A stretch of DNA of 64,000 nucleotides, from positions 3,712,001 to 3,776,000 of the forward strand of contig OZ250169.1 of the NCBI GenBank assembly GCA_965237955.1, read 5' to 3'. This document shows, one piece after another, positions 12,429-31,205 of this stretch. Made by a program: the position numbers and the translations under genes. The notes under the pieces are model-generated. The model saw nothing but the letters and a program-made list of their open reading frames with translations. It was not told the DNA's origin and ran no database searches. The DNA comes from Candidatus Marinacidobacterales bacterium. GTDB lineage: Bacteria; Acidobacteriota; Vicinamibacteria; Marinacidobacterales; SMYC01. How positions within the stretch are numbered: position 1 is the stretch's first letter; every line of letters begins with the position of its first letter.

Positions 12429-12458
12429 TTGTCCTAGACTGTAATAGGGCCGTATAAT
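12429..12458 (+). promoter_or_regulatory. Putative sigma70 promoter of the flavoprotein/Mo-hydroxylase operon
   Basis: TTGTCC-N18-TATAAT (perfect -10) about 125 bp upstream of ATG 12585. Confidence 0.55.
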
Positions 12459-12470
12459 CAAACCGCCCTC

Positions 12471-12546
12471 GAAGAAGCTGGGAGGCTCCAGTGCAGGTCC
12501 CTTTTAGTGAAGAAGCTGGGAGGCTCCAGTGCAGGTCCCTCATAGT
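12471..12546 (+). repeat. Tandem 38-bp direct repeat (32-bp identical core) in the operon leader
   Basis: GAAGAAGCTGGGAGGCTCCAGTGCAGGTCCCT at 12471-12502 and 12509-12540, followed by TTTAGT and CATAGT respectively. Confidence 0.95.
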
Positions 12547-12584: not shown

Positions 12585-14363
12585 ATGAAGTTTGAAGTGG
12601 TGGCATCAGACGTCGTTGTGATTGGCGCAGGTGGAGCGGGAATGCGCGCAGCGATCGCGGCTGCCGAGGCAGGTGCAAAGGTGGTGTTGTTGACCAAGGG
12701 TCAAGCCGCGCGCAGCGGCGCCACGCCCATGGCCTGCCCTTCCTATCAAGCGGCTTTTGCGATGGAGGACGATAGGGACAGCTCCGAGATTGCCTTCGAG
12801 GATACTTGCTACGAAGGACGTTATCTCGGCGACGAGAACCTAATCAAGGTCCTGACATCTGAGTCGACGGAACGCGCCATGGACATGTACCGCTATGGGG
12901 TCAAGTTCCGCGAGAACGAGCGAGGAAAGTTTCTTCAGGTCGTTCATCCTGGTCATTCGTTTGAACGAAATCTGGTCATCTTAGGGGATGGGTATGCGAT
13001 GGCCGCCGGTCTACGCCGAGAGGTCATCAAGCAAGAAAACGTTCAGCTCGTCGAAGATGTCGTTGCCACACTGCTCCTGAAAGACGGCGACCGGATGGCT
13101 GGGCTCGTAGCGCTGGACATGCGGAAAGGCCATCCGGTTGTGTTTGAAGCTCCCTCGGTGATCCTCGCCACCGGCGGCTATCCGGAACTCTGGCGGTGGA
13201 CCGATACCGAGCCCGGGCTGACCGGCGAAGGCGTGTACCTGATGTACGAGGCCGGTGCAGACCTCGTTGATCTCGAAATGATGCTTTTCTACCCCACCGG
13301 TCTCTGCTGGCCGTCTGAGGTGGAGGGGACGCTGGTGCAGTACGAGGGGCTGCTTACCGAGAAATACTGCAATGCCAAGATGCTCAATGGCCTCGGTGAA
13401 CCCTTCCTACCGAAGACCGATCGTCTCCCGGTGCGCGACATCATGATGAAGCTGATGTTCAAGGAAATTGAAGAAGGTCGGGGCACGCCTCACGGCGGCG
13501 TGTACGTGGATCTGCGCAAGTCACCCAACTCGCCCGAAAAGGTGATGGAGATTCTCCACCGGCTCGACTCCCTGCCTTACAAAGAGCTGGAACTTCTAGG
13601 TATCAACGTGCTCGAGCAGCCCATCGAGGTGATGCCCGTGACCCACTACACCCTTGGTGGGGCGCGCATCAACGAGTGGGCGGAAACGAATGTTCCTGGC
13701 TTGTATGCCGCTGGCGAGGTCGCGGGCAATGTGCACGGCGCCAACCGAACCAGTGGCAACGCCCTTGCCGAGACGCAGGTTTTCGGGCGCCGGGCCGGTA
13801 TCCGGGCAGCAGAATATGCGCGCGAGAGCCCAGCGCTCGAAAATGACGAAGCCACGATTGCCGCGGAATTTGAACGCATCTACGATTTGCGCAAGGAGCG
13901 CGGAAACGGCATACGACCCATCGATTTCAAGCGCAAGGTCAAGGCGATCATGCACCAGTACGTGCACTATCGTCGCAATGCCGAAGGCCTATCGACCGCC
14001 ATGGCGGAGCTCGGCGGTCTGCGTGAAGAACAGGCGCAGCGTGTCCAGGCGGCCGCTGGACCAGCAACGTACAACTATGAGTGGGAAGAGGCGCTCGAGA
14101 CCCACGCTATTGTGCGACTTGCGGAAATGACCGCCGCCTCAGCCCTGGCTCGCGAAGAAAGCCGCGGCCATCACTGGCGAACAGACTTTCCTGAAATGCG
14201 ACCCGAATGGGCAAAGCATACAATTGTGAAGCGAACCGACGAGGAAGCGTACAACGTGACAGATGCTCCGGTGGTCCGCCTGAAGGATCGCACGAGGGAG
14301 AGAAGGCGAGCAGACCCCGCATTGATTGAAGCAGGGGTCTTGGAAGGTTATGATGCGGTGTAG
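12585..14363 (+). CDS. FAD-dependent oxidoreductase of the SdhA/FrdA/TfrA/NadB family, atypical active site
   Basis: GAGGAG, ATGG, HYTLGG, GLYAAGE, HGANR and RE.SRG.H motifs; RSGA replaces RSH; FYPT replaces FHPT. Confidence 0.88.
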   Translation: MKFEVVASDVVVIGAGGAGMRAAIAAAEAGAKVVLLTKGQAARSGATPMACPSYQAAFAMEDDRDSSEIAFEDTCYEGRYLGDENLIKVLTSESTERAMDMYRYGVKFRENERGKFLQVVHPGHSFERNLVILGDGYAMAAGLRREVIKQENVQLVEDVVATLLLKDGDRMAGLVALDMRKGHPVVFEAPSVILATGGYPELWRWTDTEPGLTGEGVYLMYEAGADLVDLEMMLFYPTGLCWPSEVEGTLVQYEGLLTEKYCNAKMLNGLGEPFLPKTDRLPVRDIMMKLMFKEIEEGRGTPHGGVYVDLRKSPNSPEKVMEILHRLDSLPYKELELLGINVLEQPIEVMPVTHYTLGGARINEWAETNVPGLYAAGEVAGNVHGANRTSGNALAETQVFGRRAGIRAAEYARESPALENDEATIAAEFERIYDLRKERGNGIRPIDFKRKVKAIMHQYVHYRRNAEGLSTAMAELGGLREEQAQRVQAAAGPATYNYEWEEALETHAIVRLAEMTAASALAREESRGHHWRTDFPEMRPEWAKHTIVKRTDEEAYNVTDAPVVRLKDRTRERRRADPALIEAGVLEGYDAV

Positions 14364-14371
14364 GGAAGATC

Positions 14372-14746
14372 ATGTCACACATTCTTGTGATCGAGGAAAC
14401 GGAACCCGTAGAGATCGGGGAGCCCATCACCGCCGACGTATACCGTTTCGACCCGTCGAGCGACATCGAGCCGCGGGTGGAGCGCTACACGGTTCCTTAC
14501 CACCACCGGATGAGTGTGTTCACTTTGCTGCGTGAGATCTATGCGCGCCAAGATCAAACGCTTGCTTTCCGCAACCAACAATGTGGGCGGGGGATCTGCG
14601 GCACGTGCCGGGTGCGGCTTCAGATCAATGGCGGCGAGGAGAAATCCCTCAAGGGATGCACCATTCCGCTCGAGCCGGGTTCGCATGTCGTCATCAAACC
14701 CTATAAGGAGAACAGAGTCATCCGCGATCTCGTGGTGGATTTTTGA
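14372..14746 (+). CDS. 2Fe-2S protein equivalent to only the N-terminal domain of SdhB/FrdB
   Basis: VYRFDP, CGRGICGTC...C and VIRDLVVD followed by a stop; no 4Fe-4S/3Fe-4S domain. Confidence 0.85.
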   Translation: MSHILVIEETEPVEIGEPITADVYRFDPSSDIEPRVERYTVPYHHRMSVFTLLREIYARQDQTLAFRNQQCGRGICGTCRVRLQINGGEEKSLKGCTIPLEPGSHVVIKPYKENRVIRDLVVDF

Positions 14747-14788
14747 GAGGCTCAGGGGTCCACATCGTAGAATGATCCAATGAACCAC

Positions 14789-14930
14789 TAGCAGGGTGCT
14801 GAAAAAGCGTTCTGCACCCTGCGCGGGCGAGTTGCAAAAAGACGCGCGCCCGGCCCGAATGGGCCGTCAAAGGCCCGAGCGAGGAGCAAGGGAGCCGAAG
14901 AGACCGAGCACTGGAGTGAACCAGTAACGG
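14789..14930. repeat. REP/MITE-like structured intergenic element
   Basis: TAGCAGGGTGCTGAAAAAGCGTTCTGCACCCTGC hairpin plus further small palindromes; related inverted copy at 37306-37339. Confidence 0.55.
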
Positions 14931-14961
14931 GGGACGAGGGCCAAAGAAGAGGTTGTGGTTC

Positions 14962-15849
14962 ATGCTATATCAGACTTACTACGCACCAGAGACGGTCGAG
15001 GAGGCGCTCACCCACCTGGCACAAGCCAACGGTAACACGGTGAAGCTCATAGCTGGCGGCACCGACCTCATGGTCCAGCTGCGTGAACGTATGGTGCATG
15101 CGGACACGCTGGTGGATGTGAGCGGAATTGCCGAGCTGGGGCGGATTTGGGTGGATGAGCATCGGCTTCACATCGGCGCTACCGTCACCTACACGCAGCT
15201 CATCGAGTCAGAACTGGTCCATGAGTACGCCTATTTGCTTGCAGAAGCCAGTCGGGTCATTGGCGCGCCGCAGATCCAGCACATGGGAACGATTGGTGGG
15301 AACCTGGGTAACGCCTCGCCTGCGGGCGACACATTACCCTGCTTGTACGCTCTCGAGGCCGAGGTAACGCTGGCGGGCCTCGAGGGTGAGCGGCAACTGG
15401 CCATGTCCGACTACATGCTGGGCGTGCGTAAGACAGCGATGCAGCCAAGTGAGCTCATTACAGAGGTGTCTTTCGACATCCCGCGGGGAAATGCTGGAAG
15501 CGCTTTCGCCAAATTGGGACTGCGGCGTGCCCAGGCAATCTCCGTCGTCGATGTCGCGGCACTCGTGTTCCTCGATGATGACCGCATCTCGAACGTGCGT
15601 GTTGCTCTGGGCTCTGTGGCCCCGACCATTGTGCGCGCTCGGGCGGTGGAGCAGATGCTGATGGGGCAGATACCATCGGATGACCTACTCGATCGAGCTG
15701 CCGAGGCCGCCCGGCAGGATATCAGCCCCATAACGGACATCCGGGGCAGCTTCGCTTATCGGCTCTACATAACCAAGCCGTTGGTCAGGCAGGCGGTAGA
15801 AACTGCGTTGAAACGAGCAGGAGCGCCAGGGCAACGCGAGGAAAACTAA
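14962..15849 (+). CDS. Molybdenum hydroxylase FAD-binding (medium) subunit
   Basis: AGGTDL, GTIGGNL.NASP.GD and PITDIRGS motifs (CoxM/XdhB/NdhF type). Confidence 0.92.
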   Translation: MLYQTYYAPETVEEALTHLAQANGNTVKLIAGGTDLMVQLRERMVHADTLVDVSGIAELGRIWVDEHRLHIGATVTYTQLIESELVHEYAYLLAEASRVIGAPQIQHMGTIGGNLGNASPAGDTLPCLYALEAEVTLAGLEGERQLAMSDYMLGVRKTAMQPSELITEVSFDIPRGNAGSAFAKLGLRRAQAISVVDVAALVFLDDDRISNVRVALGSVAPTIVRARAVEQMLMGQIPSDDLLDRAAEAARQDISPITDIRGSFAYRLYITKPLVRQAVETALKRAGAPGQREEN

Positions 15850-15852
15850 CCC

Positions 15853-16413
15853 ATGGCAAACTTCGTCGAGAAGATTGGCGAGAAGCAAGTGTTGATGGAG
15901 GTCACCATTAATGGGGAGCCCGTCTCCAAGGTCGTGAGAGCAGGGCGTCGCCTGATTGATTTCCTGCGAGATGATCTCCACCTGTACGGCACGAAAGAGG
16001 GATGCGGCGAGGGTGAGTGCGGAAGCTGTACCGTTTTCTTGAATGGAACAGCAATTCTCTCTTGTCTCGTGCCTGTGGAAAGAGCTCATGGTGGCGAGGT
16101 ACTGACCATCGAGGGAATCGGTACGTCAGTGAACCTACATCCTCTGCAGCGGGCGATGCTCGAAGAGGGTGGCATACAGTGCGGTATATGCACGCCGGGA
16201 ATGGTGATGGCTGGTATCGATCTGCTCCAGCGTAACCCTGAACCAACGAGGGAAGAGTGTATCGAGGGCATTACCGGCAACCTGTGCCGGTGTACGGGCT
16301 ACCAGAAGATCGTCTCAGCGGTCCAGCGTGCAGCCAGGGACACGCTGTGGCACCGGGATCAGCGCCACGAATATCGGAGGGAACCGAATGAGAGACTCAC
16401 CCGTCGAAGTTGA
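15853..16413 (+). CDS. Molybdenum hydroxylase 2x[2Fe-2S] (small) subunit
   Basis: GTKEGCGEGECGSC, QCGICTPG and NLCRCTGY. Confidence 0.95.
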   Translation: MANFVEKIGEKQVLMEVTINGEPVSKVVRAGRRLIDFLRDDLHLYGTKEGCGEGECGSCTVFLNGTAILSCLVPVERAHGGEVLTIEGIGTSVNLHPLQRAMLEEGGIQCGICTPGMVMAGIDLLQRNPEPTREECIEGITGNLCRCTGYQKIVSAVQRAARDTLWHRDQRHEYRREPNERLTRRS

Positions 16414-17722
16414 TGTTAAGCACAAGCTGATCCAGGAAGAAAAAGACATCATCGGCGAATCGGTCGTCCGGGAAGACGCCGTGCCGAAGGTGACGGGGAA
16501 AGCCATTTACGGCGCCGACCTCTACAAGCCAGGGATGCTCCACGCCAAAGTGCTCTTGAGCACAGAGGCCCACGCCCTGGTCAAGCACATTGACACCCGC
16601 GAAGCTGAACAGATGGACGGTGTCCACGCCGTCCTCACGGCCAAGGATATCCCCGGTGCCAACGTCTACGGCATTGCCATCCCTGACCAGCAGGTGCTGG
16701 CAGAAGAAAAGGTCCGCTTTTTTGGGGAGCCGGTGGCGCTCGTAGCCGCCGAAGAGCCCGACCTCGCAGAGGAGGCGATAGACAAGATTCAGGTTGAATA
16801 TGAACCGCTGCCCCCAGTGTTCGATCCCATCTCGGCACTTGAGCCTCAAGCGCCCCAGGTGCAGCCAAACGGAAATCTCATTCTACACACTCGCGTGCGC
16901 AAGGGCGACTTCGAAAAGGGTTTCGAGGAAGCGGATGTTGTTATTGAAGACCTGTTCCGCACCCACGGACAAGATCATGCGCCCATAGAGCCTGAGGCGG
17001 GCATCGCATGGATTGACGAAAATGGAATCTTGGTCATATTCTCCTCATCCCAATATATCTTTCGCGACCGCCGCCAAGTAGCGCACGTACTCAAGCTGCC
17101 AGCTAACCGAATCAGAAACATCGCGAGCGAGATGGGTGGCGGATTCGGTCGCAAGGATGATGTCACGGTCGAAATTTTGGTCGCGCTTCTCGCGTGGGCG
17201 ACCGGGCGACCGGTTCGCCTTGCTTACACGCGGCATGAATCCATGCTTACCCAGACTCACCGTCATCCCACCGTTGTCCGGGCACGTGCCGGCGCGACGC
17301 GGGATGGGAAACTGACGGCACTCGAGGGTGTCATCTACGGGGATTCTGGCGCCTACGCATCGTTGGGAATCTACGTGATCAAGAAGATGGCCCTTCATCT
17401 TGGTGGGCCGTACTACTGGCCGAACTATAAGACGGACAGTTTCTCTGTTTACACCAACAATCCCATTGGCGGTCCCTTCCGCGGATTCGGCGTTCTTCAG
17501 TGTGCAGTCGTTCACGAGAGTCTGCTCGATCGGCTTGCCGAGACGATCGGCATGGATCCTATTGAATTCCGCTTGAACAATTGCCTGCGCGAGGGGCTTA
17601 CCTTCAGCACCGGCCAGGTCATGACAGAAGCGGCCGGCATTGCCGCTACCCTGGAAAAACTGAAAGAGTACATGGCCGATGAAGACTTGAGCTTCAACCG
17701 TCATTCGGAGGTGACCGCGTGA
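16388..17722 (+). CDS. Molybdenum hydroxylase Mo-binding subunit, N-terminal half (NdhL-like)
   Basis: KVTG.A.Y..D, GGGFGRK and FRGFG motifs; ATG at 16388 overlaps the small-subunit gene end. Confidence 0.9.
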   Translation: MRDSPVEVDVKHKLIQEEKDIIGESVVREDAVPKVTGKAIYGADLYKPGMLHAKVLLSTEAHALVKHIDTREAEQMDGVHAVLTAKDIPGANVYGIAIPDQQVLAEEKVRFFGEPVALVAAEEPDLAEEAIDKIQVEYEPLPPVFDPISALEPQAPQVQPNGNLILHTRVRKGDFEKGFEEADVVIEDLFRTHGQDHAPIEPEAGIAWIDENGILVIFSSSQYIFRDRRQVAHVLKLPANRIRNIASEMGGGFGRKDDVTVEILVALLAWATGRPVRLAYTRHESMLTQTHRHPTVVRARAGATRDGKLTALEGVIYGDSGAYASLGIYVIKKMALHLGGPYYWPNYKTDSFSVYTNNPIGGPFRGFGVLQCAVVHESLLDRLAETIGMDPIEFRLNNCLREGLTFSTGQVMTEAAGIAATLEKLKEYMADEDLSFNRHSEVTA

Positions 17723-18756
17723 AACTGAGGGGGGTCGGCATCGGCTCCATGATCTATGGCTTGGGATACGGTTTCGCGCGTCCAGACTTTGCCAGCGCAG
17801 AGGTCGAAGTGGCGTTTGACGGCAGTGTGACGCTATGGAATGGCGCTAGCGAGTTGGGGCAGGGGCTGCGTACCGTTCTCTGTCAGCTTGTCGCGGGCGA
17901 GTTAGGCATTCCCTATGAGGACGTCAGGATTATCTCCTCGGACACGGAGAAAACATCTGATTCTGGTCCCGTATCGGCAAGCCGCGCCACCTATGTGCAG
18001 GGGAATGCCGTGGTCAGAGCTTGCGGCGATTTGAAAGAGCAGTTGGGAACGCTGGCGGCTGACCTGCTGGACACATATCCAGGCAGAATTGAGTTCCGCG
18101 ACAAAGGCGTCTACGATCAGGAGGAGCCGTCCAAGTGGATACCCTTCGCGAAACTGGCCGGCGAAGCGCACGCGCGCGGCAAACGATTCCGAGGACACGG
18201 CTGGCACGACATCACGACATCCGATGTCGATCGCGAAACATCACAAGGAGACGCTTACGCGACGTACGCGTGGGCGAGCCAGCTGGCCGAACTCGAAGTA
18301 GACACCGAGACCGGTAAGGTAACCGTTCTGCGACTGGCCTCCGCGACCGATGCGGGCAAAGCCATCAACCCCAAAGGCGTGGAAGGCCAGATCGAGGGCG
18401 GTGCGGTGCAGGGACTTGGGTTCGCCTTGATGGAGGATATGATTGTGAAGGATGGGAAGTTTCTGAACTCTCGCTTCAGCACCTATATCATCCCGACTGC
18501 AGCCGATGTCCCAAGAATCGATCCTCTCATTGTCGAGGTGTATGACCCGACCGGTCCGCATGGAGCCAAAGGGGTCGCGGAGCCCGCCACAATACCCACA
18601 ACTCCGGCGATACTCAACGCCATCGCTGACGCGCTGGGTAAACGCATGAGCCGAACACCTGCCACCCCTGAGCGTGTACTTCAGCTACTCGGGAAAATCG
18701 AAGTCGCGCAAAACGAAGTGATTGCGATGGAGGACGTCCCCTATCCGAGCCCCTGA
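17719..18756 (+). CDS. Molybdenum hydroxylase Mo-binding subunit, C-terminal half (NdhM-like)
   Basis: ELGQG, AINP..VEGQIEGG and GAKGVAEP (catalytic Glu); GTGA overlap with its own GGAGG RBS. Confidence 0.9.
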   Translation: MKLRGVGIGSMIYGLGYGFARPDFASAEVEVAFDGSVTLWNGASELGQGLRTVLCQLVAGELGIPYEDVRIISSDTEKTSDSGPVSASRATYVQGNAVVRACGDLKEQLGTLAADLLDTYPGRIEFRDKGVYDQEEPSKWIPFAKLAGEAHARGKRFRGHGWHDITTSDVDRETSQGDAYATYAWASQLAELEVDTETGKVTVLRLASATDAGKAINPKGVEGQIEGGAVQGLGFALMEDMIVKDGKFLNSRFSTYIIPTAADVPRIDPLIVEVYDPTGPHGAKGVAEPATIPTTPAILNAIADALGKRMSRTPATPERVLQLLGKIEVAQNEVIAMEDVPYPSP

Positions 18757-18833
18757 AGTGCGCAGCCGGCGACTTCGTCGGAACGGTTACCTCTGGCGGC
18801 GGCCTGGTATGATTCAACGAAGAAAAAGGCGCA

Positions 18834-20063
18834 ATGATTCAGAAACGTAAATCCTTGTTCGTGCTGTCGGGGTTTATTTTCGCTCGGTTGATGGTTGCGT
18901 GCGCGGCGGGGCCTGGAGCAGAGGACCCCATTCGGTTTGGGGTCATTCAGCCGCTGACGGGACCGGTTGCCGATGCAGGGTCTTATGTCCTCCACGGCCT
19001 GACCATCGGCCTCGAGAAGATCAACTCCGAGGGCGGTGTCTGCGGGCGGCGGCTGGAGCCGGTCGTCTTGGACGGCAGGAATGACCCGCAGGAATCCGCC
19101 AACGCGGCAGAGAGCTTGATCACACGTGAGAAGGTGCCCATCATCATGGGCGCATGGGGCAGCTCATCCACACTCGCGGTGATGCCGGTGATGGAGCGAC
19201 ACGGGGTACCCCTCGTGGTGGAAACATCCAGCTCCCCAAAGATTACAACCGCCGGTACGCCTGGTTTCGAGTGGGTGCATCGTATAAGCGCCACCAGCGC
19301 CATGGAAGCTGAGGCAGCGAAGCCCTACCTGGTCGATGTACTCGGGATGCACAACGTGGCCATCCTGAGTGTCAACAACGACTGGGGGCTCAGTTCGGGT
19401 GAAGCCTTCCGCCTGGTTATCGAAGAACAGGGTGGCAATATTGTCAGCGAGGACTATATCGACCAAGCCGCCACCGACGTCCTCCCACAGCTTACGAGGA
19501 TCAAGGGCTCGAAGGCGGACGCTATCTTGATGACCACTAGCGCTGGGCAGATAGCGACCATACTCAAGCAGTATAACGAGCTGGGTATGGATCAGACCAT
19601 CCTCACCACCGGCGGTAGTAACTATCCAATCGCCATCATGGATCTCTCCAGCCCGGAGATTGTCAATGGCACCTACCACCTGATGTTCTACGTGCCGAAG
19701 GAGTACGATTTGGCGGGAGATCCAGAGATTTCTGAGTGGTATTACAAGGAGTACATGAAGCGCGGCTATCCGGAGGTGGGACGGGGAGAATCCCACCGCG
19801 GCTTCGAGGCTGTGCATGTCATTGCTAAAGCGATTGAGCTGAACAACTGCAACCTCGATCCAGAGGGTTTGAACGACGCGCTGACTCGTGTTCAGTTTGC
19901 CGGGCTGAGCGGTCACATCCAGTTCGACGATGCCAATGGCCGTCAAAGCCGTCCCAACGTGTATCTCGTGCGCGTCGAAGATGGTGAACTGAAGCCCGTA
20001 CAAAGGCCTCACTCTGGTGGAACAGCGCATACGTCGCCGGAGCAGGGAGGTGCCCCACCATAG
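18834..20063 (+). CDS. LivK-type ABC substrate-binding lipoprotein; last codons contributed by IS256
   Basis: Lipobox-like MVAC; PLTG and IN.EGGV.GR motifs; original end PEH* restored across the IS target duplication. Confidence 0.88.
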   Translation: MIQKRKSLFVLSGFIFARLMVACAAGPGAEDPIRFGVIQPLTGPVADAGSYVLHGLTIGLEKINSEGGVCGRRLEPVVLDGRNDPQESANAAESLITREKVPIIMGAWGSSSTLAVMPVMERHGVPLVVETSSSPKITTAGTPGFEWVHRISATSAMEAEAAKPYLVDVLGMHNVAILSVNNDWGLSSGEAFRLVIEEQGGNIVSEDYIDQAATDVLPQLTRIKGSKADAILMTTSAGQIATILKQYNELGMDQTILTTGGSNYPIAIMDLSSPEIVNGTYHLMFYVPKEYDLAGDPEISEWYYKEYMKRGYPEVGRGESHRGFEAVHVIAKAIELNNCNLDPEGLNDALTRVQFAGLSGHIQFDDANGRQSRPNVYLVRVEDGELKPVQRPHSGGTAHTSPEQGGAPP

Positions 20064-21490
20064 TTGAAGGTTCGAGGTGGTGGCGGCTCCTGACACATGG
20101 TTTACCCGACTTTGGCGTGCTTGTCGAGCGCTTGATTCTCAGTGACCTCCGCTAACTTCGCTTCGAGGATCGGTAGCGATTGGTATCCAATGATACGACG
20201 GAAATTTTTCTCCGTGGCGAGCAGAGCCGAAGCGGCCCATCTCAGAACCATCTTGCCATTGCGCCAGCGGGTGACGCGACGGGTACGACCTCGCGCACCG
20301 CTGAAGCACGACTCGATGATGTTCGTCGATCCAAGGCAGCGTTTCAGAGATGCGGGGAGGTCGAGCTCGTTGATGGTGAACATCTCGTCGAGCCCCTCCC
20401 GGATGCTCTCCGCCGCCGAGGGGTAGTCGTCCTCGAGCCACTTCGCCTGTTGCTCCAACCGCGCTTTGCCCTTCTTTGCTGGGAGCTGCCAGGCCGAACG
20501 CAGGCTCGCTTGCACTTGCGGCTTCAGCTCCTGCGGCAGATAACCGAGCACATTGCGCTCCTTGTGCTTCCTGCAACGCTGAACCTTGTTGTGGGTACCG
20601 AACACAGCGTCGACGGCGAGCCGTAGCGCCTTGGAGCCATCGATCACGAACAGCCGACACCGCTCTGGGCTCAGGCCTCGTTCGACCAGGTCCTCCAGCA
20701 GCGCCTTGCACACTATCTGGTTCTCCGATGCTCCATCCCGAAGCCCCAGAACATGCTTGTATCCCTCTGTATCTACGCCGATTGCCGCCAGCGCGTGGTG
20801 CTCGCCGAAGCGAATCCCGTCCAGGTACACGACCGCGATCTCCAGCTCGTCCAGCGGATGCTCCATCAGCCCCTGCAACTGCTCCGCGCTTGCTTCCACG
20901 AACTCACGGCTCACCTCGCTCTTGCTAACCCCTACCGTCTCCGCCATCTCGGGAAGAACCGACGCGTACTTGCGCGTCGACACACCCAGCATCAGGATTT
21001 CCCAGATGCGTTGGCTCAGCCGAGACGAGTTGTTCACCGCTTCGTAGGCAGGAATCGCAACCTCCCCTCCCTCTGCCTTTCCCTTACGCCGCAGACGTGG
21101 CCGGCTCACTCTCAACTTCCGCTCCGCAAGGCTTACTACGCCACCCTGCCGGCCGTGCCAGCGAACATCGCTACCCTTCTTCCCCGGGTGTTTCTCCCCA
21201 GCCACACTTTGGGCTGACAGATCCAAGACCGCTTCGATCGTCGCTCGGCCAGCAACGTCGATCACTTCGTCGATCGCTATCTCGGTTCGCTCAATCGCAT
21301 CCAAGAACGGCAACAGAGCTTGCCCCTTCGAGCTCAGTATCTCTCGAAGCTTCTTCCTGTTCTTCGCATCGATGATTTGGTGATTTGACATCGTGGTGGC
21401 TCCTTTCTTTTTCCTTCACAGCCGGATTCTATCGAACCCGGCCTTAGGAGCCGCCACTCCTAACCTTCAACTATCTCAGGGGCATCTCCC
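20045..21490 (-). mobile_element. IS256-family element
   Basis: Imperfect terminal IRs (GGGAGGTGCCCC..ATAGTTGAAGGTT..GGCGGCTCCT); target duplication GGAGCA (CCGGAGCA if the right end is 21488). Confidence 0.9.
20102..21391 (-). CDS. IS256 (mutator-type) transposase
   Basis: GVSTR, YLDG, IDGSKAL, QRC..HK.RN and STN.IES motifs. Confidence 0.93.
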   Translation of the reverse strand: MSNHQIIDAKNRKKLREILSSKGQALLPFLDAIERTEIAIDEVIDVAGRATIEAVLDLSAQSVAGEKHPGKKGSDVRWHGRQGGVVSLAERKLRVSRPRLRRKGKAEGGEVAIPAYEAVNNSSRLSQRIWEILMLGVSTRKYASVLPEMAETVGVSKSEVSREFVEASAEQLQGLMEHPLDELEIAVVYLDGIRFGEHHALAAIGVDTEGYKHVLGLRDGASENQIVCKALLEDLVERGLSPERCRLFVIDGSKALRLAVDAVFGTHNKVQRCRKHKERNVLGYLPQELKPQVQASLRSAWQLPAKKGKARLEQQAKWLEDDYPSAAESIREGLDEMFTINELDLPASLKRCLGSTNIIESCFSGARGRTRRVTRWRNGKMVLRWAASALLATEKNFRRIIGYQSLPILEAKLAEVTENQALDKHAKVG

Positions 21491-21641
21491 GGAGCATTAG
21501 TCGACCCGTTAGATCCAATTGCCGTCATCCAGGTACAAAGCACCGCTGGCGGGAAAATCCCAGCCGAATCAGAGCATTGAAAACGGCTTCGCGCCTCTCA
21601 GCCTGAGCCACATTCAATCGAAGCTCCGGGAGGCGGTGCGT

Positions 21642-21797
21642 ATTCCGGGGCATCGTGAACGCAGATTCCAGCCGAAGGTGAACATCCATTCCAAAGCATC
21701 GTGAACACGGATTCCGGGGATCGTGAACATCGATTCCGGGGAAGGTGAACACGGATTCCAGGCAACGTGAACGCCGGTTCCGGCATCGCGAACGCTC
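21642..21797 (+). repeat. Seven 21-23 bp subterminal repeats of the IS21 left end
   Basis: ATTCC-N7-8-GTGAAC-N4 units in tandem; about 3 inverted copies at the right end (about 24388-24458). Confidence 0.88.
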
Positions 21798-21856
21798 ATC
21801 GATAGCACGTTTCAAGGCAACTCTAGGTCGTACCCGGAAGGAGGACGATCTAGGAA

Positions 21857-23292
21857 ATGGCAGCTAAGAGGTTATCGATGAGAAAAATACGAGAGGTTCT
21901 AAGGTTAAAGTACGAGCTGGGTTTTACTCACCGCATGATCGCAAAGGCACTTCGCGTGGCGGTTGGAACGGTGAGTGAGTACCTGGCCAAGGCGAAGAAG
22001 GGTGGTCTGAGCTGGCCGCTCCCGGAGGAGCTGAGCGAAGGGGAGCTGGAGGCAGGGCTGTTTCCGCCGCCGGGCTCGTCTGGCGCACGGCCGGGTCTGG
22101 ACTATGCCCACATCCACGAGGAGCTGAGGCGTCACCGAGAGCTGACGTTGCTGCAGCTGTGGGTGGAGTACGCGGAGAATAAGCCGGGAGCGTACGGCTA
22201 CAGCCGTTATTGCGAGCTGTACGGTCAATGGAGCTGTTCGTCGGGACGTTGGGCGCGAGCAGTTACACCTACGTCGAAGCGACACTGAACCAGTCGCTGG
22301 AATCGTGGGCGAAGGCCCATAAGGGGATGTCGGATTACTTCGGTGGCAGTACGGAGATCTGGGTTCCGGACAACTTGAAGAGCGGCGTGGATTTGGTGGA
22401 CCGTTACGAGCCAGGGATCAACCGGACGTACGAAGAGCTGGCGACGCATTACGGTGCGGTTGTGGTCCCGGCTCGGGTGTTCAAGCCGAAAGACAAAGCG
22501 AAGGTGGAGTCGGCAGTGCAGGTGGCGCAGCGCTGGATCCTGGCGGTGCTTCGTCATCGCACGTTCTTCAGCCTGGCGGAACTGAACGAAGCCATCTGGG
22601 AGAAGTTAGAGGTCCTGAATGCGCGTCCGATGCAGAAGCTCGGTGTGAGTCGGCGGGAGTTGTACGAAAGGCTAGACCGGCCCGTACTGAAACCGCTACC
22701 GCAGGAGAGCTACGAGTTATCGACGTGGAAGCGGTGCAGAGTGAACATCGACTACCACGTGGAGGTGGAGAACAACTTGTACAGCGTTCCCTATCAGCTC
22801 ATTCACGAGAAAGTCGAGGCACGGGTGACGGCCTCGGTGGTGGAGGTCCTGTTCAAGGGAAAGCGCGTCGCGTCGCATCCCCGCAAGAAAGGAAAGGGGC
22901 ACTACTCCACGAACCCGGAGCATATGCCACGTTCGCATCGGGAGCACCTGGAGTGGACGCCGTCGCGGCTGCTCCACTGGGCGGAGCAGTCAGGTCGCGC
23001 CACGGGAAGGCTGGTTGCGGGGATTCTAGAGAGTCGGCCTCACCCGGAGCAGGGATTTCGCTCTTGCCTGGGAGTCATGCGACTAGGCAGCCGCTGGGGC
23101 AGTGAGCGTCTCGAGGCCGCTTGCGCACGAGCGGAAGCTTTGAGCTCTTACAGCTATCGCACGGTGAAAAACATTCTCTCGGCTGGTCTGGATCGTGTGG
23201 TGCTCGAATCGGACGCCGAAGCGAAACCGCGAGAGGAGCACGAGAACATCCGAGGCGCGGATCACTACGAAGGAGGAGAGTCCCGATGCTGA
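21857..23292 (+). pseudogene. istA: IstA transposase with internal deletion and frameshift
   Basis: N-terminal HTH ORF 21857-22288 and core ORF meet out of frame at CGGTCAATGG (about 22222-22231); the segment with the first catalytic Asp is missing. Confidence 0.85.
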
Positions 23293-24044
23293 CACCCGAA
23301 ACGATAGAAAAGATGAACGCCATGAAGTTGTTCGGCTTGGTGTCCGCGTTCGAAACCCAGTTGAGCTCGAGCGAATACAAGGAGCTGAGCTTCGAGGAAC
23401 GTGTGGGACTCCTGGTCGATGCCGAGTGGACCGCCCGCGAACAGCGTAAGCTTTCTCGACGACTGCGAGCGGCAAAGCTCCGCTATCCGGCATGTTTGGA
23501 GAACGTGAACTTCCAAGCGCCTCGAGGCTTAAACCGCGAACAGATCTTGAGCCTGGGCAACTGCCGCTTTGTCGGTGAGCGCCATAACCTGCTCATCACC
23601 GGCCCGACGGGGATTGGCAAATCGTTCTTGGCTTGCGCCTTCGTGGAGCGGGCCTGTCGTCGCGGCTTCACCGGATGCTACGTGCGAGCACCGCGCTTGC
23701 TCCACGAGCTCGCGGTCGCTCGTGGTGATGGTTCCTACGCCCGGCTTTTGACGAAACTCGCCAAGCTGGACTTACTGGCTATCGATGATTGGCTGCTTCA
23801 CCCGCTGAAAGAATCGGAGAGACGGGATCTAATGGAGGTCATCGAAGACCGCGCCGAGCGTGGCTCCACACTCATCGCGACCCAGATTCCGCTCAAGCAG
23901 TGGCACGAAGCGATTGGCGACCCAAACCAGGCAGACGCTATCTGCGATCGCATTCTCCACAGCGCGCACCGCATCACTCTCAAAGGAGCTTCTCTGAGAA
24001 AGACCAAGGCTGCGCCAAAGGCATTTGACAACGCCGATGCATGA
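23286..24044 (+). CDS. istB: IstB AAA+ ATPase helper
   Basis: GPTGIGKS, LLAIDD and DAICDRILH motifs; GGAG RBS. Confidence 0.93.
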   Translation: MLTPETIEKMNAMKLFGLVSAFETQLSSSEYKELSFEERVGLLVDAEWTAREQRKLSRRLRAAKLRYPACLENVNFQAPRGLNREQILSLGNCRFVGERHNLLITGPTGIGKSFLACAFVERACRRGFTGCYVRAPRLLHELAVARGDGSYARLLTKLAKLDLLAIDDWLLHPLKESERRDLMEVIEDRAERGSTLIATQIPLKQWHEAIGDPNQADAICDRILHSAHRITLKGASLRKTKAAPKAFDNADA

Positions 24045-24565
24045 GCGAGCGAGGGACCACAGCGTCGATGCGATAAAAACGGGTGAAACCGCCAAACCCG
24101 GGGTACCAGACGATGCGGCGCCAAAACGACGCGCGAGAATGCCTCAGGAAGCGTCTTCTCGAGCCAGGCCATACCCCAGCAACCCCCCGAAACCAGCCCC
24201 ACATCGCCCGGGGTTCGGCCGCGGCAGGTCGCTGCCTACGGGAGCGGGAAGGTCGCTTCGCGTCTTTCCTTACGCCCGCTCCCTCCGGCACCGACCTGCC
24301 GCCCCTTGCTACACAACACGCAGGTAAGATAGGTTCACGTTTTCAATCAGTGGAAAGGAGGTCACCCAACACTTCATCGCTTCGATGAGCGTTCGGCTTC
24401 ACCGGATTCGCTGTTCAGCTTGCTCTGGATTCGGCGTTCACGATGGCTGGAATACGCAGTCGGAGCGTTAATTAACCCCAAAGCAAAAATCAACGCGGCC
24501 ACGAATTGCCTAAGGGAGGCCCCCTGTGTCAGGGTTAACCTCCACGTCTGCCCCTAATACCGGTC

Positions 24566-25438
24566 ATGGTTATTTTCTTACAACACGTCGTCAACGGTCT
24601 CATGATCGGTGGTGTTTACGCCTTGATGGGCATAGGCCTGACGCTCATTTTTGGCGTCATGAATGTGGTGAACTTCGCGCACGGCGAGTTCTACATGCTG
24701 GGCGCATTCGTCGTCTACACGGTCTTCACGCTCGCGGGCGTACCGTACCTGATCGCGCTCATCGCTGCGGCCATCGTCGTTGGCCTACTGGGTGTCTTTG
24801 TCGAGCGGTTTTTGTTGCGTCCGATCCGCCATCAGCCCGTGGATGTTCCGATGCTGGCAACGATCGGGCTCTCCATCTTTCTGGCTAATATGGCGTTGAT
24901 CGTCTGGGGCCCCACCCGCAAGGATATAGGCCAGGCTTTTCCTCTAGTTGGCATCGAGGTTGGACCCTTGACACTGACGCCCGCCAGGGTGTCCGTGCTC
25001 GTTGCCTCGCTCCTCATCATTGTCGGCTCGCATTGGTTCCTCCAGCGCACAAAGTTGGGCAGGGCTATACGTGCCACCTTCCAGGATCCGGAAACGGCTG
25101 CCTTGATGGGTGTCGACGTCGACTTTGTCAACATGTTTACCTTCGGCTTGGGAGCGGGCATCGCCGCTCTTGCCGGTGGCTTGCTCGGGCCCATTTTCCA
25201 GGTGTTTCCCACCATGGGAGCTATCGTCAGCCTCAAATCCTTTGCGGTGGTCATCGCCGGTGGGTTGGGCAGCTTCCCCGGCGCCATCCTGGCGGGACTG
25301 CTGCTGGGCATTGCCGAGAGTTTAGGGGCAGGCTATATCTCCTCAGGATATCGTGACGCGATTGCATTCATCCTGATCATTGTCGTGCTCATTTTCAAAC
25401 CCACCGGTCTGCTGGGAAAAAAGGGCGGAGTGGGATGA
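24566..25438 (+). CDS. livH: Branched-chain amino acid-type ABC permease
   Basis: GLTLIFGVMNVVNFAHGEF, T.LGRAIRA and GGLGS motifs. Confidence 0.9.
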   Translation: MVIFLQHVVNGLMIGGVYALMGIGLTLIFGVMNVVNFAHGEFYMLGAFVVYTVFTLAGVPYLIALIAAAIVVGLLGVFVERFLLRPIRHQPVDVPMLATIGLSIFLANMALIVWGPTRKDIGQAFPLVGIEVGPLTLTPARVSVLVASLLIIVGSHWFLQRTKLGRAIRATFQDPETAALMGVDVDFVNMFTFGLGAGIAALAGGLLGPIFQVFPTMGAIVSLKSFAVVIAGGLGSFPGAILAGLLLGIAESLGAGYISSGYRDAIAFILIIVVLIFKPTGLLGKKGGVG

Positions 25439-27357
25439 CGCAAACATCTCGATTTTCGCTCCTGGGTCTGCTGGCAGCGGCTCTGGTCTTTCCCCAAATC
25501 GTCAGCGATCCCTTCGTTCTTCGTCTGGCGATCCTATGCGGTGTCTTTATCCTGCTGGCGTCCGCCCACAACATCTTGATGAACGTAAAGCAATTGTCAC
25601 TTGGGCCGGTAGCGTTTTACGGACTGGGCGCCTATGTCTCCGCGATTCTCACAACGCGGTTCAACGTTCCCTTCCTGATAGCGTTTTTCGCCGCCGGTCT
25701 CACGGCCACCGCCGTCGGATGGATCCTTGGCCGTTTGACGCTGAGACTGCGCGCCGCCTATTTCGTCCTGGTGACTCTTGGTTTTGCCGAATTTTTCCGG
25801 CTCGTCGCCCTCAACTGGGTCGACATGACGAACGGCCCGATGGGTATTACTGCAGTACCGCCGCCCACTCCGTGGTTCAAAGGATACGTACCCTACTACT
25901 TCTTTATTCTGTTGCTAGTCGTGATCGTGCTGTGCGGTCTGTACCGCCTGGAGCACAGCACGATTGGGCGGGCCATGCGTGCTATACGTGAGAATGAACC
26001 GCTGGCCCTCTCCGTCGGCATTTCCAGCTTCCGCTACATGATGTTAGCGACTCTGCTGAGCTCTTTTATCATCGGGTTGGCCGGCAGCTTCTACGCGCAC
26101 TTTTCCCAGTTCGTCAGTCCCGAAATTCTAGCGTTCGACCTTACACTCACTATTGTGATCATGGTCATCGCCGGTGGACGTGCCACCCTGGCGGGGCCGG
26201 TCGTAGGTGCGATTATCTTCACCGTATTGCCTGAGCTCCTGCGCGTCGCCCAGGTCTGGCGCATGGCCATCTTGGGTCTAATGCTCATGCTCATCATGCG
26301 TTTCATGCCTGACGGAATCTTACCCACCCTGTCACAGTTGCTACGGCGCCTCGTCGCCCAGCGCGTCAAGGTTCGCCCGAAACCGGTCGAAGGTCCGACC
26401 CCTAGCGCGGCTCCAGCAGGACCGATCGTCACGACGGAGCAGCACTCGCCCCTGAGTCCGGAGTTTCCCGAGTCCCTTTCACGTGGGTCGACGGTTGACG
26501 GCTCAAACCTATCCCCGCGGAGTGAAGCCTCCCATGATGTCGAGCACCGCCGCAGCTCAGAAACGCTCCTTCGGGTAAAGCGACTATCCGTCTATTTCGG
26601 CGGCCTGCATGCCGTAGACGGAGTCGATTTCGAGGTGAAGGCGGGCGAGATCCTCGCGGTCATCGGCCCCAACGGAGCAGGCAAGACGACGATTCTAAAC
26701 GCAATATCCCGATTTGGGCCCATCACCGCCGGCGAGATCTGGCACCATGACGAGCTCCTCAATAACTTGTACTCGTACGAAGTTGCCTGCCGCGGTATCG
26801 TGCGCACCTTTCAAGACACCAAGCTCTTTCCGAATGTCTCGACGCGACGCAACCTCGTCCTGGCGCACAACGGCATGGAGCCGGAAGCGCTCCATGCCAA
26901 TCTGTTTCGCACCGACTCATGCTTACAGGCTGAACGGCAGGCCGAGCTCGTTGCAGATCAGGTTCTGGAGTTCCTTCGGCTGAACCCACACCGGTCGTTC
27001 TTGGCCAATAGCCTGCCCTATGGTCATCAGCGCTTGCTGGCACTGGGCATAGCACTGGCTCCTAAGCCCAAGGTGTTGCTGCTCGACGAGCCGGCAGCGG
27101 GCATGAATCTCGCCGAGGTCGCAGATCTCATGGCCCTGATCAAGAAGATTCGCGACAAAGGCATCACCATCGTTCTGGTGGAGCACGACATGAAGCTGGT
27201 CATGGGCATTTCGGATCGCGTCCTGGTGCTGGACTACGGCCAGAAGATCGCCGAGGGACGCCCAGAGGAGATCCGCGCCAACGAACGCGTCGTCGAAGCG
27301 TACCTGGGGAGGCGTAGCGAGCAAACGGAAGAGCATGCTAAAGATATCCAATATTGA
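25435..27357 (+). CDS. Fused LivM permease - LivG ATPase
   Basis: LivM motifs (LRLR..YF, GRAMRAIRENE), Pro/Ser-rich linker, then GPNGAGKT, LPYG, LLDEP and VEHDM. Confidence 0.9.
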   Translation: MTQTSRFSLLGLLAAALVFPQIVSDPFVLRLAILCGVFILLASAHNILMNVKQLSLGPVAFYGLGAYVSAILTTRFNVPFLIAFFAAGLTATAVGWILGRLTLRLRAAYFVLVTLGFAEFFRLVALNWVDMTNGPMGITAVPPPTPWFKGYVPYYFFILLLVVIVLCGLYRLEHSTIGRAMRAIRENEPLALSVGISSFRYMMLATLLSSFIIGLAGSFYAHFSQFVSPEILAFDLTLTIVIMVIAGGRATLAGPVVGAIIFTVLPELLRVAQVWRMAILGLMLMLIMRFMPDGILPTLSQLLRRLVAQRVKVRPKPVEGPTPSAAPAGPIVTTEQHSPLSPEFPESLSRGSTVDGSNLSPRSEASHDVEHRRSSETLLRVKRLSVYFGGLHAVDGVDFEVKAGEILAVIGPNGAGKTTILNAISRFGPITAGEIWHHDELLNNLYSYEVACRGIVRTFQDTKLFPNVSTRRNLVLAHNGMEPEALHANLFRTDSCLQAERQAELVADQVLEFLRLNPHRSFLANSLPYGHQRLLALGIALAPKPKVLLLDEPAAGMNLAEVADLMALIKKIRDKGITIVLVEHDMKLVMGISDRVLVLDYGQKIAEGRPEEIRANERVVEAYLGRRSEQTEEHAKDIQY

Positions 27358-28039
27358 CGTCTACTATGACAACGTCCATGTTCTCAAAGACGTTACGTTG
27401 CACGTCAACCAAGGGGAGCTCGTCACACTCATTGGTGCGAATGGCGCGGGTAAGACCACCTTACTCAAGACGCTCTCGGGCTTGAAGTCACCCCGCCATG
27501 GCGTGATTGCCTTTTTGGACCAGCGGATCGATGGCAAATCGCCCACTGAAATCGTGCGGCTCGGTATCGTCCACTGTCCCGAAGGCCGTCGCATTTTTCC
27601 CGACATGAGGGTGGGTGAGAATCTTGAAATGGGTGCTTACACCCGCTCCGATAGAGACGGCATTGGAACGGATAAGGAGCTCATCTTCGAGCTCTTCCCG
27701 ATTCTGAAGGAACGCTACAACCAACGGGCTGGCAATCTCTCTGGGGGCGAGCAGCAAATGCTCGCCATGGGTAGGGCGTTGCTTGCCAAGCCCCGCCTCC
27801 TCATGTTCGACGAGCCATCGCTCGGGCTTGCGCCGGTCCTCGTCGAGCAGATCGCAGACATCATCCGAAAGCTACATAAAAGCGGCACGACCATCCTGCT
27901 CAACGAGCAAAACGCTGACATGGCGCTTCGCCTGGCAGATCGCGCGTATGTGCTGGAAACCGGAAGAGTTGTCTTGGAAGGAAACGGTGCCGATCTGCTG
28001 CAAAACGCGCACGTTCAGCAAGCTTATCTCGGAGGTTGA
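27335..28039 (+). CDS. livF: Branched-chain amino acid-type ABC ATPase
   Basis: GANGAGKT, PEGRRIF, LSGGEQQM and DEPSLGLAP. Confidence 0.93.
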   Translation: MLKISNIDVYYDNVHVLKDVTLHVNQGELVTLIGANGAGKTTLLKTLSGLKSPRHGVIAFLDQRIDGKSPTEIVRLGIVHCPEGRRIFPDMRVGENLEMGAYTRSDRDGIGTDKELIFELFPILKERYNQRAGNLSGGEQQMLAMGRALLAKPRLLMFDEPSLGLAPVLVEQIADIIRKLHKSGTTILLNEQNADMALRLADRAYVLETGRVVLEGNGADLLQNAHVQQAYLGG

Positions 28040-29319: not shown

Positions 29320-29359
29320 CGCTCCATTACCTTCGTTACAAACGCCGGCTCCACTTACC

Positions 29360-29923
29360 TCACCTGGACAAGAACGAGTGTGGCGTGTGACATCCAGCAC
29401 ACGACACGGTTGCGGTGCGCGCAGGCGGCTCGGAACACTCTGCCGGCAACATGGCGTGGCATCGCTTGCACTGGATCTCGATCGCCTTCCGCTCTCGCCG
29501 TTGGTGCACCCCATGGCAAGTCCCGCAGTGAGGAGCGCGCGTTCGGGACTGCTCCAACACGAGCTTTCCGTGTTGGCTCGCGGAATACTCCGTCAGAATC
29601 GAGTCCGGGCCTTCCCCCACGTGGCAGGCACCGCACAATGCCGGAACTTCATGAGGTGCGGCGATGCGGTCCGGCTCACTACCCCCGTCGGAATCGGCGT
29701 GGCGGATACTCTCTCCATGACAGACGTTGCACCTGATTCCCTGCTCGGCGTGCGGATGTGTGAAGAATTCGTCCACGGTAACACTGTGGCAGACCACGCA
29801 CACCGGACGCTGCGCGGAAGCTTCCTGCGGTGCCATCACGATCAGGATCAGGGCCGCCAGTCCCATTGCCAGCAGCCGGAGCCCGCGTGTCACGCATCGC
29901 CGCAGGCGCCCCTCGCCTTTCAT
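29360..29923 (-). CDS. Small multiheme (6x CxxCH) cytochrome c with Sec-type signal
   Basis: CVVCH, CNVCH, CGACH, CGTCH, CKRCH, CAGCH; signal ending ASA; ATGA overlap with upstream gene. Confidence 0.85.
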   Translation of the reverse strand: MKGEGRLRRCVTRGLRLLAMGLAALILIVMAPQEASAQRPVCVVCHSVTVDEFFTHPHAEQGIRCNVCHGESIRHADSDGGSEPDRIAAPHEVPALCGACHVGEGPDSILTEYSASQHGKLVLEQSRTRAPHCGTCHGVHQRRERKAIEIQCKRCHAMLPAECSEPPARTATVSCAGCHTPHSFLSR

Positions 29924-31158: not shown

Positions 31159-31205
31159 CGTTTCCTCCTTCCGAGCGACGGCCACCCGAAAGATGATCGG
31201 CGAGG

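Follow-up and report, generated by a model that had tools for sequence, protein, structure and literature searches.

What reaction is carried out by soluble molybdenum (Mo) hydroxylase subunits that are encoded together with a fumarate reductase-like flavoprotein and an amino-acid-type importer? The question is raised by ten genes at positions 12585–28039 of a 64,000-nucleotide stretch of DNA, here called the window, from a Candidatus Marinacidobacterales bacterium (GenBank assembly GCA_965237955.1, contig OZ250169.1, positions 3,712,001 to 3,776,000). The genes encode, in order, an SdhA/FrdA-superfamily flavoprotein, a small [2Fe-2S] partner (mini-FeS), the FAD, FeS, large (MoL) and medium (MoM) subunits of a Mo hydroxylase, and a Liv-type transporter (Table 1). 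Their families, span and common + strand are as given in a preliminary description of the window, which had proposed a horizontally acquired module for import, hydroxylation and reduction of an N-heterocycle or aldehyde. Our analysis inclines us, with slightly better than even confidence, towards a conserved mobile module for the import, hydroxylation and ring reduction of an N-heteroaryl-2-carboxylate to a cyclic lactam amino acid.

Searches based on an alignment of 25 sequences recovered 33 genome loci and 65 metagenome loci, which comprise a close set of 56 loci with at least 52% identity, collapsed to 41 by merging near-copies, and 42 more distant loci. The mini-FeS gene comes next after the flavoprotein gene in 35 of the 36 close loci with room for it, and an orthologous MoL gene lies downstream in 14 of 26; Mo genes occur in none of the 42 distant flavoprotein loci (<52%). 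The ten-gene order is found in the two closest relatives (L015 and L016, Ca. Marinacidobacterales), where a block free of insertion sequences (IS) occupies the same chromosomal context as in the host, and also in Vicinamibacterales (L020), Woeseiaceae (L019) and Anaerolineae (L022, L024, L025 and L029), with the six-gene enzyme order recurring in other Chloroflexota (L031, L032/L037, L066 and L068). Trees of the flavoprotein, MoL and MoM (14 rows; MoM by a quick method) share the same main groups, and the block therefore travels as one piece. Recurrence of the gene order in three phyla and the congruence of the trees bear out the proposal of a conserved import-hydroxylate-reduce module, and the search for the six-gene set returns both orders repeatedly, although Mo genes stand beside only part of the reductase loci. 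In a tree with Sdh/Frd outgroups, built by a quick method and with long outgroup branches, an Acidobacteriota/Woeseiaceae group (99) is nested in Chloroflexota-dominated diversity, and a Chloroflexota source of the block is suggested. Three close flavoprotein loci (L053, L060 and L072) adjoin unrelated, unsplit Xdh-family enzymes, which suggests that this flavoprotein lineage has been paired with Mo hydroxylases repeatedly. One genome (G065; L033 and L135) holds a module copy without moL and, behind a UbiD decarboxylase gene, a second moL-moM pair with a near-identical MoM.

The flavoprotein belongs to a subfamily whose best 120 matches listed are 48–99% identical to it. TfrA is its best NCBIfam model (score 410, cut-off 718), with NadB at 265 against 453 and TIGR01813 (flavocytochrome c) at 137 against 285; none of the enzyme subunits of the block passes a curated NCBIfam cut-off. 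Its predicted model (predicted local distance difference test, pLDDT, 84) has the SdhA/FrdA fold, and an atlas search resolved the family level only. Residues were compared with the host's own FrdA and with SdhA sequences of relatives, and conservation was counted over 119 rows. Of the residues that bind carboxylate or donate a proton, Arg284 is kept in all 119 rows and His354 and Arg388 in 117 each. Tyr236 stands in every row at the His of the Frd motif [FY]HPT, the TE and AEGG of Frd/Sdh read QYE and ACPS, and RSHT reads RSGAT, removing the covalent-FAD His; that column holds Ala, Leu or Met in the rows covering it (116/119), bar three with other residues. With Arg284, His354 and Arg388 kept and His exchanged for Tyr236, the flavoprotein is likely a reductase of a mono-carboxylic α,β-enoate and not of fumarate. 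His121, present in 116 of the 119 rows at the Phe of Frd RxFGG, presumably occupies the position of NadB Glu121 and hints at a nitrogen on the substrate C-alpha. According to the available part of PMC10249383, NadB Glu121 binds the substrate amine and replaces a neutral residue of Sdh/Frd. The His/Arg carboxylate contacts and proton-donor Arg are described as family-wide in the accessible portion of PMC7921117, which also reports that in UrdA the C1-carboxylate His is exchanged for Tyr, that fumarate activity is lost with this exchange, and that Tyr373His brings some of it back. The flavoprotein resembles UrdA in retaining the catalytic Arg and a single carboxylate site, the second site having Tyr in place of His; in contrast to UrdA, which is of the flavocytochrome-c type, it carries the C-terminal domain of SdhA, and its gene is linked to those of an Fe-S partner and a Mo hydroxylase.

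That partner matches TfrB over positions 4–97 of 488 only. Its Cys residues C71, C76, C79 and C96 are invariant in 29 sequences, and many of its best matches are one-domain proteins of 100–140 amino acids, so it is not a decayed sdhB product. The pair thus retains from complex II (SdhAB/FrdAB) and TfrAB the fold, the FAD site, the proton-donor Arg, one carboxylate site and the N-terminal [2Fe-2S] domain, but lacks the covalent-FAD His, has a remodeled second carboxylate site, and has a partner without the [4Fe-4S]/[3Fe-4S] or CCG domains of SdhB and TfrB. The absence of a membrane anchor holds as first described, and no membrane segment is predicted for any product of the six enzyme genes. Among the soluble complex II homologs named in the available part of PMC10238741 (Fcc3, Osm1 and NadB), none has a one-cluster partner. 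A housekeeping Sdh/Frd identity was rejected, as the host has its own complete frdABCD-type gene set outside the block, and no nad genes were seen among the neighbors of the flavoprotein loci; Tyr236 also departs from the His244-type site of NadB. Flavoprotein and mini-FeS pairs with other pocket motifs also occur in distant subfamilies (L039–L047 and L075–L112; Bacillota, Nitrososphaeria, Dehalococcoidia), beside genes for an NMT1 transporter, an ATC-hydrolase family protein, UbiD, GlcD/CCG, electron-transfer flavoprotein and an FGGY kinase; these constitute a wider family of soluble mini-complex-II reductases.

The Mo hydroxylase resembles nicotinate dehydrogenase (Ndh) of Eubacterium barkeri (PDB 3HRD). 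MoL matches chain 3hrd_A with 352.7 bits (next PDB match, 209) and MoM matches 3hrd_B with 259.5 bits (next, 158.8), and the split point, the F-S-L-M order and the catalytic Glu are those of NdhFSLM, whose subunit layout is given in the available part of PMC10331938. The features of the xanthine-oxidase family are all present, namely FAD, 2×[2Fe-2S] and molybdenum cofactor subunits with Q222 (MoL) and E288 (MoM) present in every row; the AGGTD and GTIGGN motifs of the FAD subunit are intact, and all Xdh family models score below cut-off for the block's subunits. Relatives in the MoM clade are 55–92% identical. The motifs GGGFGRKDD, QYxxRDR and KK (VxKK) of MoL are conserved in all 18 rows aligned, the MoM loop YGxGYGFxRxD is invariant, and the pocket loops are subfamily-specific. 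Compared with Ndh, GGGFGRKDD stands against GGGFGGKLD and YGxGYGFxRxD against YGIGN-TGLP, and MoL Lys333 replaces the Arg of VITRATVH; we take this Arg and the compared loops to be substrate-pocket residues of Ndh. Conserved basic residues at the Mo site (R226, R255, K332/K333 and MoM R21) fit an anionic substrate. The selenium marker yqeB (TIGR03309) was found in one of five module genomes and not in the host. Judged from sequence, the likeness to Ndh noted in the preliminary description is architectural: order, split point and best PDB chains agree, but active-site loops and pocket residues differ, the reductase is an SdhA-family protein with mini-FeS instead of 6-hydroxynicotinate reductase (Hnr), and the downstream genes are others. 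Related split FSLM enzymes (45–49%) in G526 and G409 (L147, L148) are accompanied by Liv genes, two amidohydrolases, an aldehyde dehydrogenase and AFOR; with an Ndh-like pocket loop (GGKNE), they form another uncharacterized N-heterocycle cluster.

The window block itself contains no XdhC, regulator or hydrolase gene, as first described; three XdhC copies and a pxpA-pxpBC set lie elsewhere in the host genome, and regulator and hydrolase genes flank the block in other genomes. Neighbors were counted over the 41 de-duplicated close loci, with some genes under-counted through wrong-frame picks. Recurrent are IclR (15), a two-Cys maleate-isomerase/racemase-family protein (14), DUF6282 (13), M20 (7), POR-type subunits (6) and PxpA (4, or 5 with the L050 group), joined by ThrC-like pyridoxal phosphate (PLP) enzymes, CoA-transferases III and Amidohydro_2 proteins. 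The M20 protein encoded after livF in three Anaerolineae is of the ArgE/DapE type, and the nearest relatives of the POR and of the associated ligase are pyruvate synthase and acetate-CoA ligase, respectively. No locus has both PxpA and DUF6282, a pattern that alternative ring-opening enzymes should show. The product of the adjacent pxpA passes the PxpA cut-off; module-adjacent copies of Woeseiaceae and Vicinamibacterales, which have moved between phyla together with the block, are 79–81% identical to each other and 47–49% identical to that of a Dehalococcoidia module (L033), and pxpA was therefore recruited at least twice, separately in L033. In G066 and G067 the module-adjacent pxpA is the only one, with pxpBC elsewhere in the genome. 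For DUF6282, a single-sequence fold (pLDDT 37) was too low for use, and its atlas clusters carry amidohydrolase/PHP-like names (PTE 11%, Amidohydro_2 12% of members). Together, PxpA, DUF6282, racemase/isomerase, deacylase, PLP lyase and 2-oxoacid oxidoreductase point to a lactam or amino-acid product. Of the two substrate classes first proposed, N-heterocycle is thus supported in preference to aldehyde. The ectoine route was rejected from EutA scores of 75–82 against 318 and an EutB score of 76 against 413; the homarine route was also rejected, since homABCD are oxygenase-type and the main text of PMC13236597 does not contain 'molybd', 'xanthine' or 'reductase'. In four Woeseiaceae loci (L017, L019, L048 and L049), a divergent, CoxL-like, unsplit second Xdh-family enzyme is encoded upstream of pxpA; genes for an ADP-forming acyl-CoA synthetase and for a protein of the benzoate-CoA-ligase family accompany it. 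In the host (G000:C1:3710132-3710473, − strand), 1.5 kb left of the window, lies a truncated pxpA (114 of 239 profile positions) that is intact at the same place in G009.

The genes, their order, conservation, co-inheritance and active-site residues are directly established, and from them we infer the following catalytic steps. The Liv transporter would take up an N-heteroaryl-2-carboxylate, a substrate class towards which our preference is as slight as for the module as a whole. The FAD/FeS/MoL/MoM enzyme would hydroxylate the acid at the position adjoining the ring nitrogen, with the oxygen coming from water and two electrons being set free. The flavoprotein/mini-FeS pair would use up two electrons in reducing the ring C=C conjugated to the carboxylate, with His354 and Arg388 binding the carboxylate, non-covalent FAD giving the hydride and Arg284 protonating C-alpha. 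The two steps would amount to a redox-neutral hydration without quinone, membrane anchor or O2; the anchor would be missing because the Mo and reductase steps balance electrons. Nicotinate fermentation follows the same hydroxylate-then-reduce logic, with Ndh followed by Hnr. The lactam would then be opened by PxpA(BC) or the DUF6282 amidohydrolase, and racemase/isomerase, deacylase or PLP steps would lead to a 2-oxoacid. Our single best guess for the substrate, itself improbable, is pyrrole-2-carboxylate converted to 5-oxoproline, favored by PxpA; azole-4-, pyrazine- or pyrimidine-carboxylates, which fit because of the pyruvate-synthase-like POR and the acetate-CoA ligase, are jointly about as improbable or slightly more so, and a picolinate-type acid, favored by isomerase, PLP enzyme and CoA-transferase, is no better placed than the lower end of that range. 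Electrons may pass directly from the FAD subunit of the Mo enzyme to mini-FeS, a suggestion in line with the electron path of the preliminary description that we make tentatively; alternatively, they may go through a pool of ferredoxin or NAD(H). The most specific version, a six-subunit soluble 'aromatic hydratase' in which Mo electrons would run through a one-cluster SdhB remnant to a complex II flavoprotein, turning a pyrrole-2-carboxylate-like acid into a 5-oxoproline-type lactam with no O2, NAD or quinone, is speculative and rather unlikely as a whole.

Several observations weigh against this pathway. Downstream of the reductase pair, an orthologous MoM is found in only 13 of the 21 close loci with room for it and livK in 9 of 20. 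The two halves are separable, which speaks against tight coupling: in G061 and G062 the reductase pair is accompanied by a POR-type oxidoreductase and an ADP-forming acyl-CoA synthetase and the best MoM match in the genome is a distant one (40–41%), and G658, a metagenome-assembled genome, has the order IclR-FAD-FeS-MoL-MoM-livKHMGF (MoL 79%, MoM 81%) with no reductase orthologue found in it. With its motifs intact, the FAD subunit of the Mo enzyme could simply reduce NAD+. The accessory genes vary between lineages and fit several substrates, and, given the affinities of POR and ligase, a C3 backbone is favored above glutamate or 2-oxoadipate. Pyrrole-2-carboxylate in its free form is electron-rich and on general grounds a poor Mo-hydroxylase substrate. 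The host family has no clear linked hydrolase, because its pxpA, 14 kb upstream of the block (in G009; truncated in the host), is only ~52% identical to the module-adjacent genes. Contigs from RNA runs cover module and flanks alike at ~2–12 depth, with DNA carry-over possible.

Separability is also the ground for a rival that concerns the electron path only and so overlaps the explanation we prefer: the Mo enzyme would be NAD+-linked, with no physical coupling, and the flavoprotein pair would act on its own as a terminal reductase, taking electrons from ferredoxin supplied by POR, AFOR or other donors. Each half occurs alone, Mo-less loci carry POR gamma-delta-alpha-beta or AFOR and are interspersed in the (quick) flavoprotein tree, and the FAD-subunit motifs are intact. 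However, in the marine-named lineages neither ferredoxin nor any other donor is encoded in the block and an NADH-binding domain is absent from the flavoprotein, which leaves the Mo enzyme as the sole donor in that operon, and the two halves have long been inherited together; we consider the uncoupled arrangement unlikely. Somewhat less likely still is a nicotinate pathway in which the Mo enzyme, as an Ndh, would produce 6-hydroxynicotinate and the flavoprotein pair would take the place of Hnr. The NdhFSLM order and split point, the wide margin of 3hrd_A/B, the label 'nicotinate dehydrogenase medium subunit' in some sources and the retention of M-subunit Tyr13 and the catalytic Glu are as such a pathway predicts, but active-site loops differ in every orthologue aligned, yqeB is missing from four of the five module genomes tested, the host included, no enamidase/methyleneglutarate-type or hnr genes were recognized among close-clade neighbors (no Hnr profile was searched), and PxpA, racemase and PLP neighbors fit an alpha-amino-acid lactam and not a nicotinate product.

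An oxidative direction would have a NadB-like flavoprotein dehydrogenate a saturated cyclic imino acid and the Mo enzyme hydroxylate the product, with electrons passing through the 2Fe-2S protein and the FAD of the Mo enzyme to NAD+. NadB has non-covalent FAD, and His121 at the amine-binding position and the amino-acid-type Liv transporter agree with this direction, which we nevertheless hold to be improbable: NadB needs no Fe-S partner, the NadB score misses its cut-off and the best family match, TfrA, is a reductase, and C-alpha imines of cyclic imino acids offer no C-H there for Mo hydroxylation. We give least credence, and very little, to a purine or pyrimidine route akin to the 2,8-dioxopurine pathway (XdhAC/DOPDH, YgfK, SsnA, HyuA, YgeY/W/X), in which a Mo step, ring reduction, amidohydrolase, carbamoylase and PLP lyase lead to pyruvate and acetate. 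The pathway logic is the same: a Mo enzyme related to Ndh acts first, then the ring is reduced, and hydrolysis leads on to pyruvate. M20, PLP and pyruvate-synthase-like neighbors recur here, a PucR-family regulator is found in L072/L073, and DOPDH clusters nearest to Ndh according to the available part of bioRxiv 10.1101/2025.04.24.650524. In that same part, however, DOPDH is described as lacking an FAD domain and needing selenium, with a reductase, YgfK, that is no SdhA homologue. The block has an FAD subunit and a non-homologous reductase, the Xdh models fail their cut-offs, no ssnA, hyuA or ygeW neighbors or other ring-opening genes of that pathway are linked, and the M20 protein downstream of livF is ArgE/DapE-type, not YgeY.

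Table 1. Features of the block and its upstream region (positions in the window).
Feature	Position	Strand	Basis
Sigma-70-type promoter-like site TTGTCC-N18-TATAAT	12429..12458	+	10/12 positions match
Flavoprotein of a distinct SdhA/FrdA-superfamily branch (592 aa), FAD predicted to be bound non-covalently	12585..14363	+	Pfam FAD_binding_2 + Succ_DH_flav_C
Mini-SdhB (mini-FeS), 124 aa, N-terminal [2Fe-2S] domain only	14372..14746	+	Fer2_3 sole domain
Mo-hydroxylase FAD subunit; alternative start ATG 14962	14953..15849	+	FAD_binding_5 + CO_deh_flav_C
Mo-hydroxylase 2×[2Fe-2S] subunit	15853..16413	+	Fer2 + Fer2_2
MoL, large half of Mo subunit, NdhL-like	16388..17722	+	top PDB match 3hrd_A
MoM, medium half of Mo subunit, NdhM-like, catalytic Glu288	17719..18756	+	top PDB match 3hrd_B
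livK, LivK-type binding protein	18834..20063	+	Peripla_BP_6
IS256 element, transposase 20102-21391, 8-nt target repeat	20045..21489	-	NF033543 above cut-off; inverted ends
IS21 element, istA internal deletion ~0.7 kb, istB intact	21637..24458	+	NF033546, NF038214 above cut-off; terminal repeat arrays; gap vs other copies
livH, LivH-type permease	24566..25438	+	BPD_transp_2; 93-95% identity to L015/L016
livMG, fused LivM-LivG permease/ATPase	25435..27357	+	BPD_transp_2 + ABC_tran + BCA_ABC_TP_C
livF, LivF-type ATPase	27335..28039	+	ABC_tran; top NCBIfam LivF 272 vs cut-off 441

The importer set of the HAAT (Liv) family is complete, with a binding protein, two permeases and two ATPases; its binding protein misses the LivK equivalog cut-off (93 against 477), and a PDB search with it gave a best match of 91 bits and no ligand clue. 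The co-directional run of the preliminary description is right in order and strand but not in continuity, since 4.4 kb comprising two IS elements between livK and livH had been overlooked. The IS256 element inserted in the last codons of livK, and its end supplies the final codons; the native stop lies at 21498–21500, LivK of relatives ends in SPED, and the insertion costs LivK only its last residues. Both insertions are recent, because empty sites appear in sequencing runs: in IS256-free contigs (X2, X3, X11 and X19) position 20036 runs straight into 21489, the two sides overlapping by 8 nt, and in an IS21-free contig (X18) 21633 runs into 24461. In this strain the pair may uncouple livH-MG-F from the upstream promoter. 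The IS load of the host genome is heavy, with 33 full copies of IS256 and about 40 of IS21 (43 matches of at least 1400 nt), 98–100% identical; the 0.7-kb istA deletion is common to one other copy, at ~1.22 Mb. The hexamers and 18-nt spacing of the promoter-like site are kept in L015 and L016, with a different spacer sequence. Between this site and the flavoprotein start, a 38-nt tandem duplication (12471–12546) is single-copy in runs X2 and X3 and in L015/L016. The FeS subunit tail (16369–16413) is unlike that of relatives, and because X2 and X3 carry one extra base at 16369, the window allele has a frameshifted tail past the conserved domain.

The GC (guanine plus cytosine) content of the module, 0.583, is indeed below that of its flanks (~0.62), as first described; the genome mean is 0.602 ± 0.015, of 739 windows across the genome, 11.5% are no richer in GC than the module, and for GC at third codon positions the individual genes range from the 7th to the 38th percentile. 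There is no strong compositional signal, because these values fall within ordinary genome spread, and we dropped them as proof of transfer. Horizontal acquisition is consistent with the patchy distribution instead: a flavoprotein orthologue is found in 2 of 60 relatives and a MoM orthologue in none of 300 other genomes of the phylum, and in the class of G069 the flavoprotein occurs in 1 and MoM in 2 of 401 genomes, with two more MoM matches (48–49%) outside the clade, these class-wide searches having scored three to five candidates per genome, so that copies may be missed. A plasmid collection gave nothing beyond 32–35% matches. On the − strand at 28123–31185, two FMN-dependent alpha-hydroxyacid dehydrogenase genes converge on livF, with a small gene encoding several CxxCH motifs between them. 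At 8784–12071 and upstream (genome 3.69–3.72 Mb) lies an array of near-duplicate sortilin/BNR-repeat genes, joined by one for a gamma-glutamyltranspeptidase, which is syntenic in G009 and has more copies elsewhere in the host genome.

In the literature searched, of which subscription papers were mostly not part and which was covered in main texts only, we found no published match to the pathway, in line with the candidate new pathway first proposed, and nothing relevant on DUF6282, anaerobic picolinate reduction, hydroxylation of pyrrole-2-carboxylate to 5-oxoproline, molybdenum-dependent breakdown of homarine or of pyrrole-2-carboxylate, or Chloroflexota gene clusters that pair xanthine dehydrogenase-family enzymes with a fumarate reductase. 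We regard the block as genuine and undescribed, a variant on the hydroxylate-then-reduce theme that brings in a new subfamily of reductases: the logic is already known, and the reductase is different in kind. To our knowledge, few genes are known for oxygen-independent routes of N-heteroaromatic acids besides nicotinate and purines. The block is a compact candidate for such a route in uncultured Chloroflexota, Acidobacteriota and Woeseiaceae, in which automated pipelines label its genes 'fumarate reductase' and 'nicotinate/xanthine dehydrogenase', and it may offer a cofactor-free biocatalyst for hydroxylation and dearomatization. With it comes a soluble subfamily of SdhA proteins that have a one-cluster partner and a remodeled active site and make up a new branch of the non-fumarate enoate reductases. 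If the 'aromatic hydratase' version of the pathway is true, the block would represent both a new subfamily of complex II homologs and the first gene set for the oxygen-independent breakdown of such N-heteroaryl acids.

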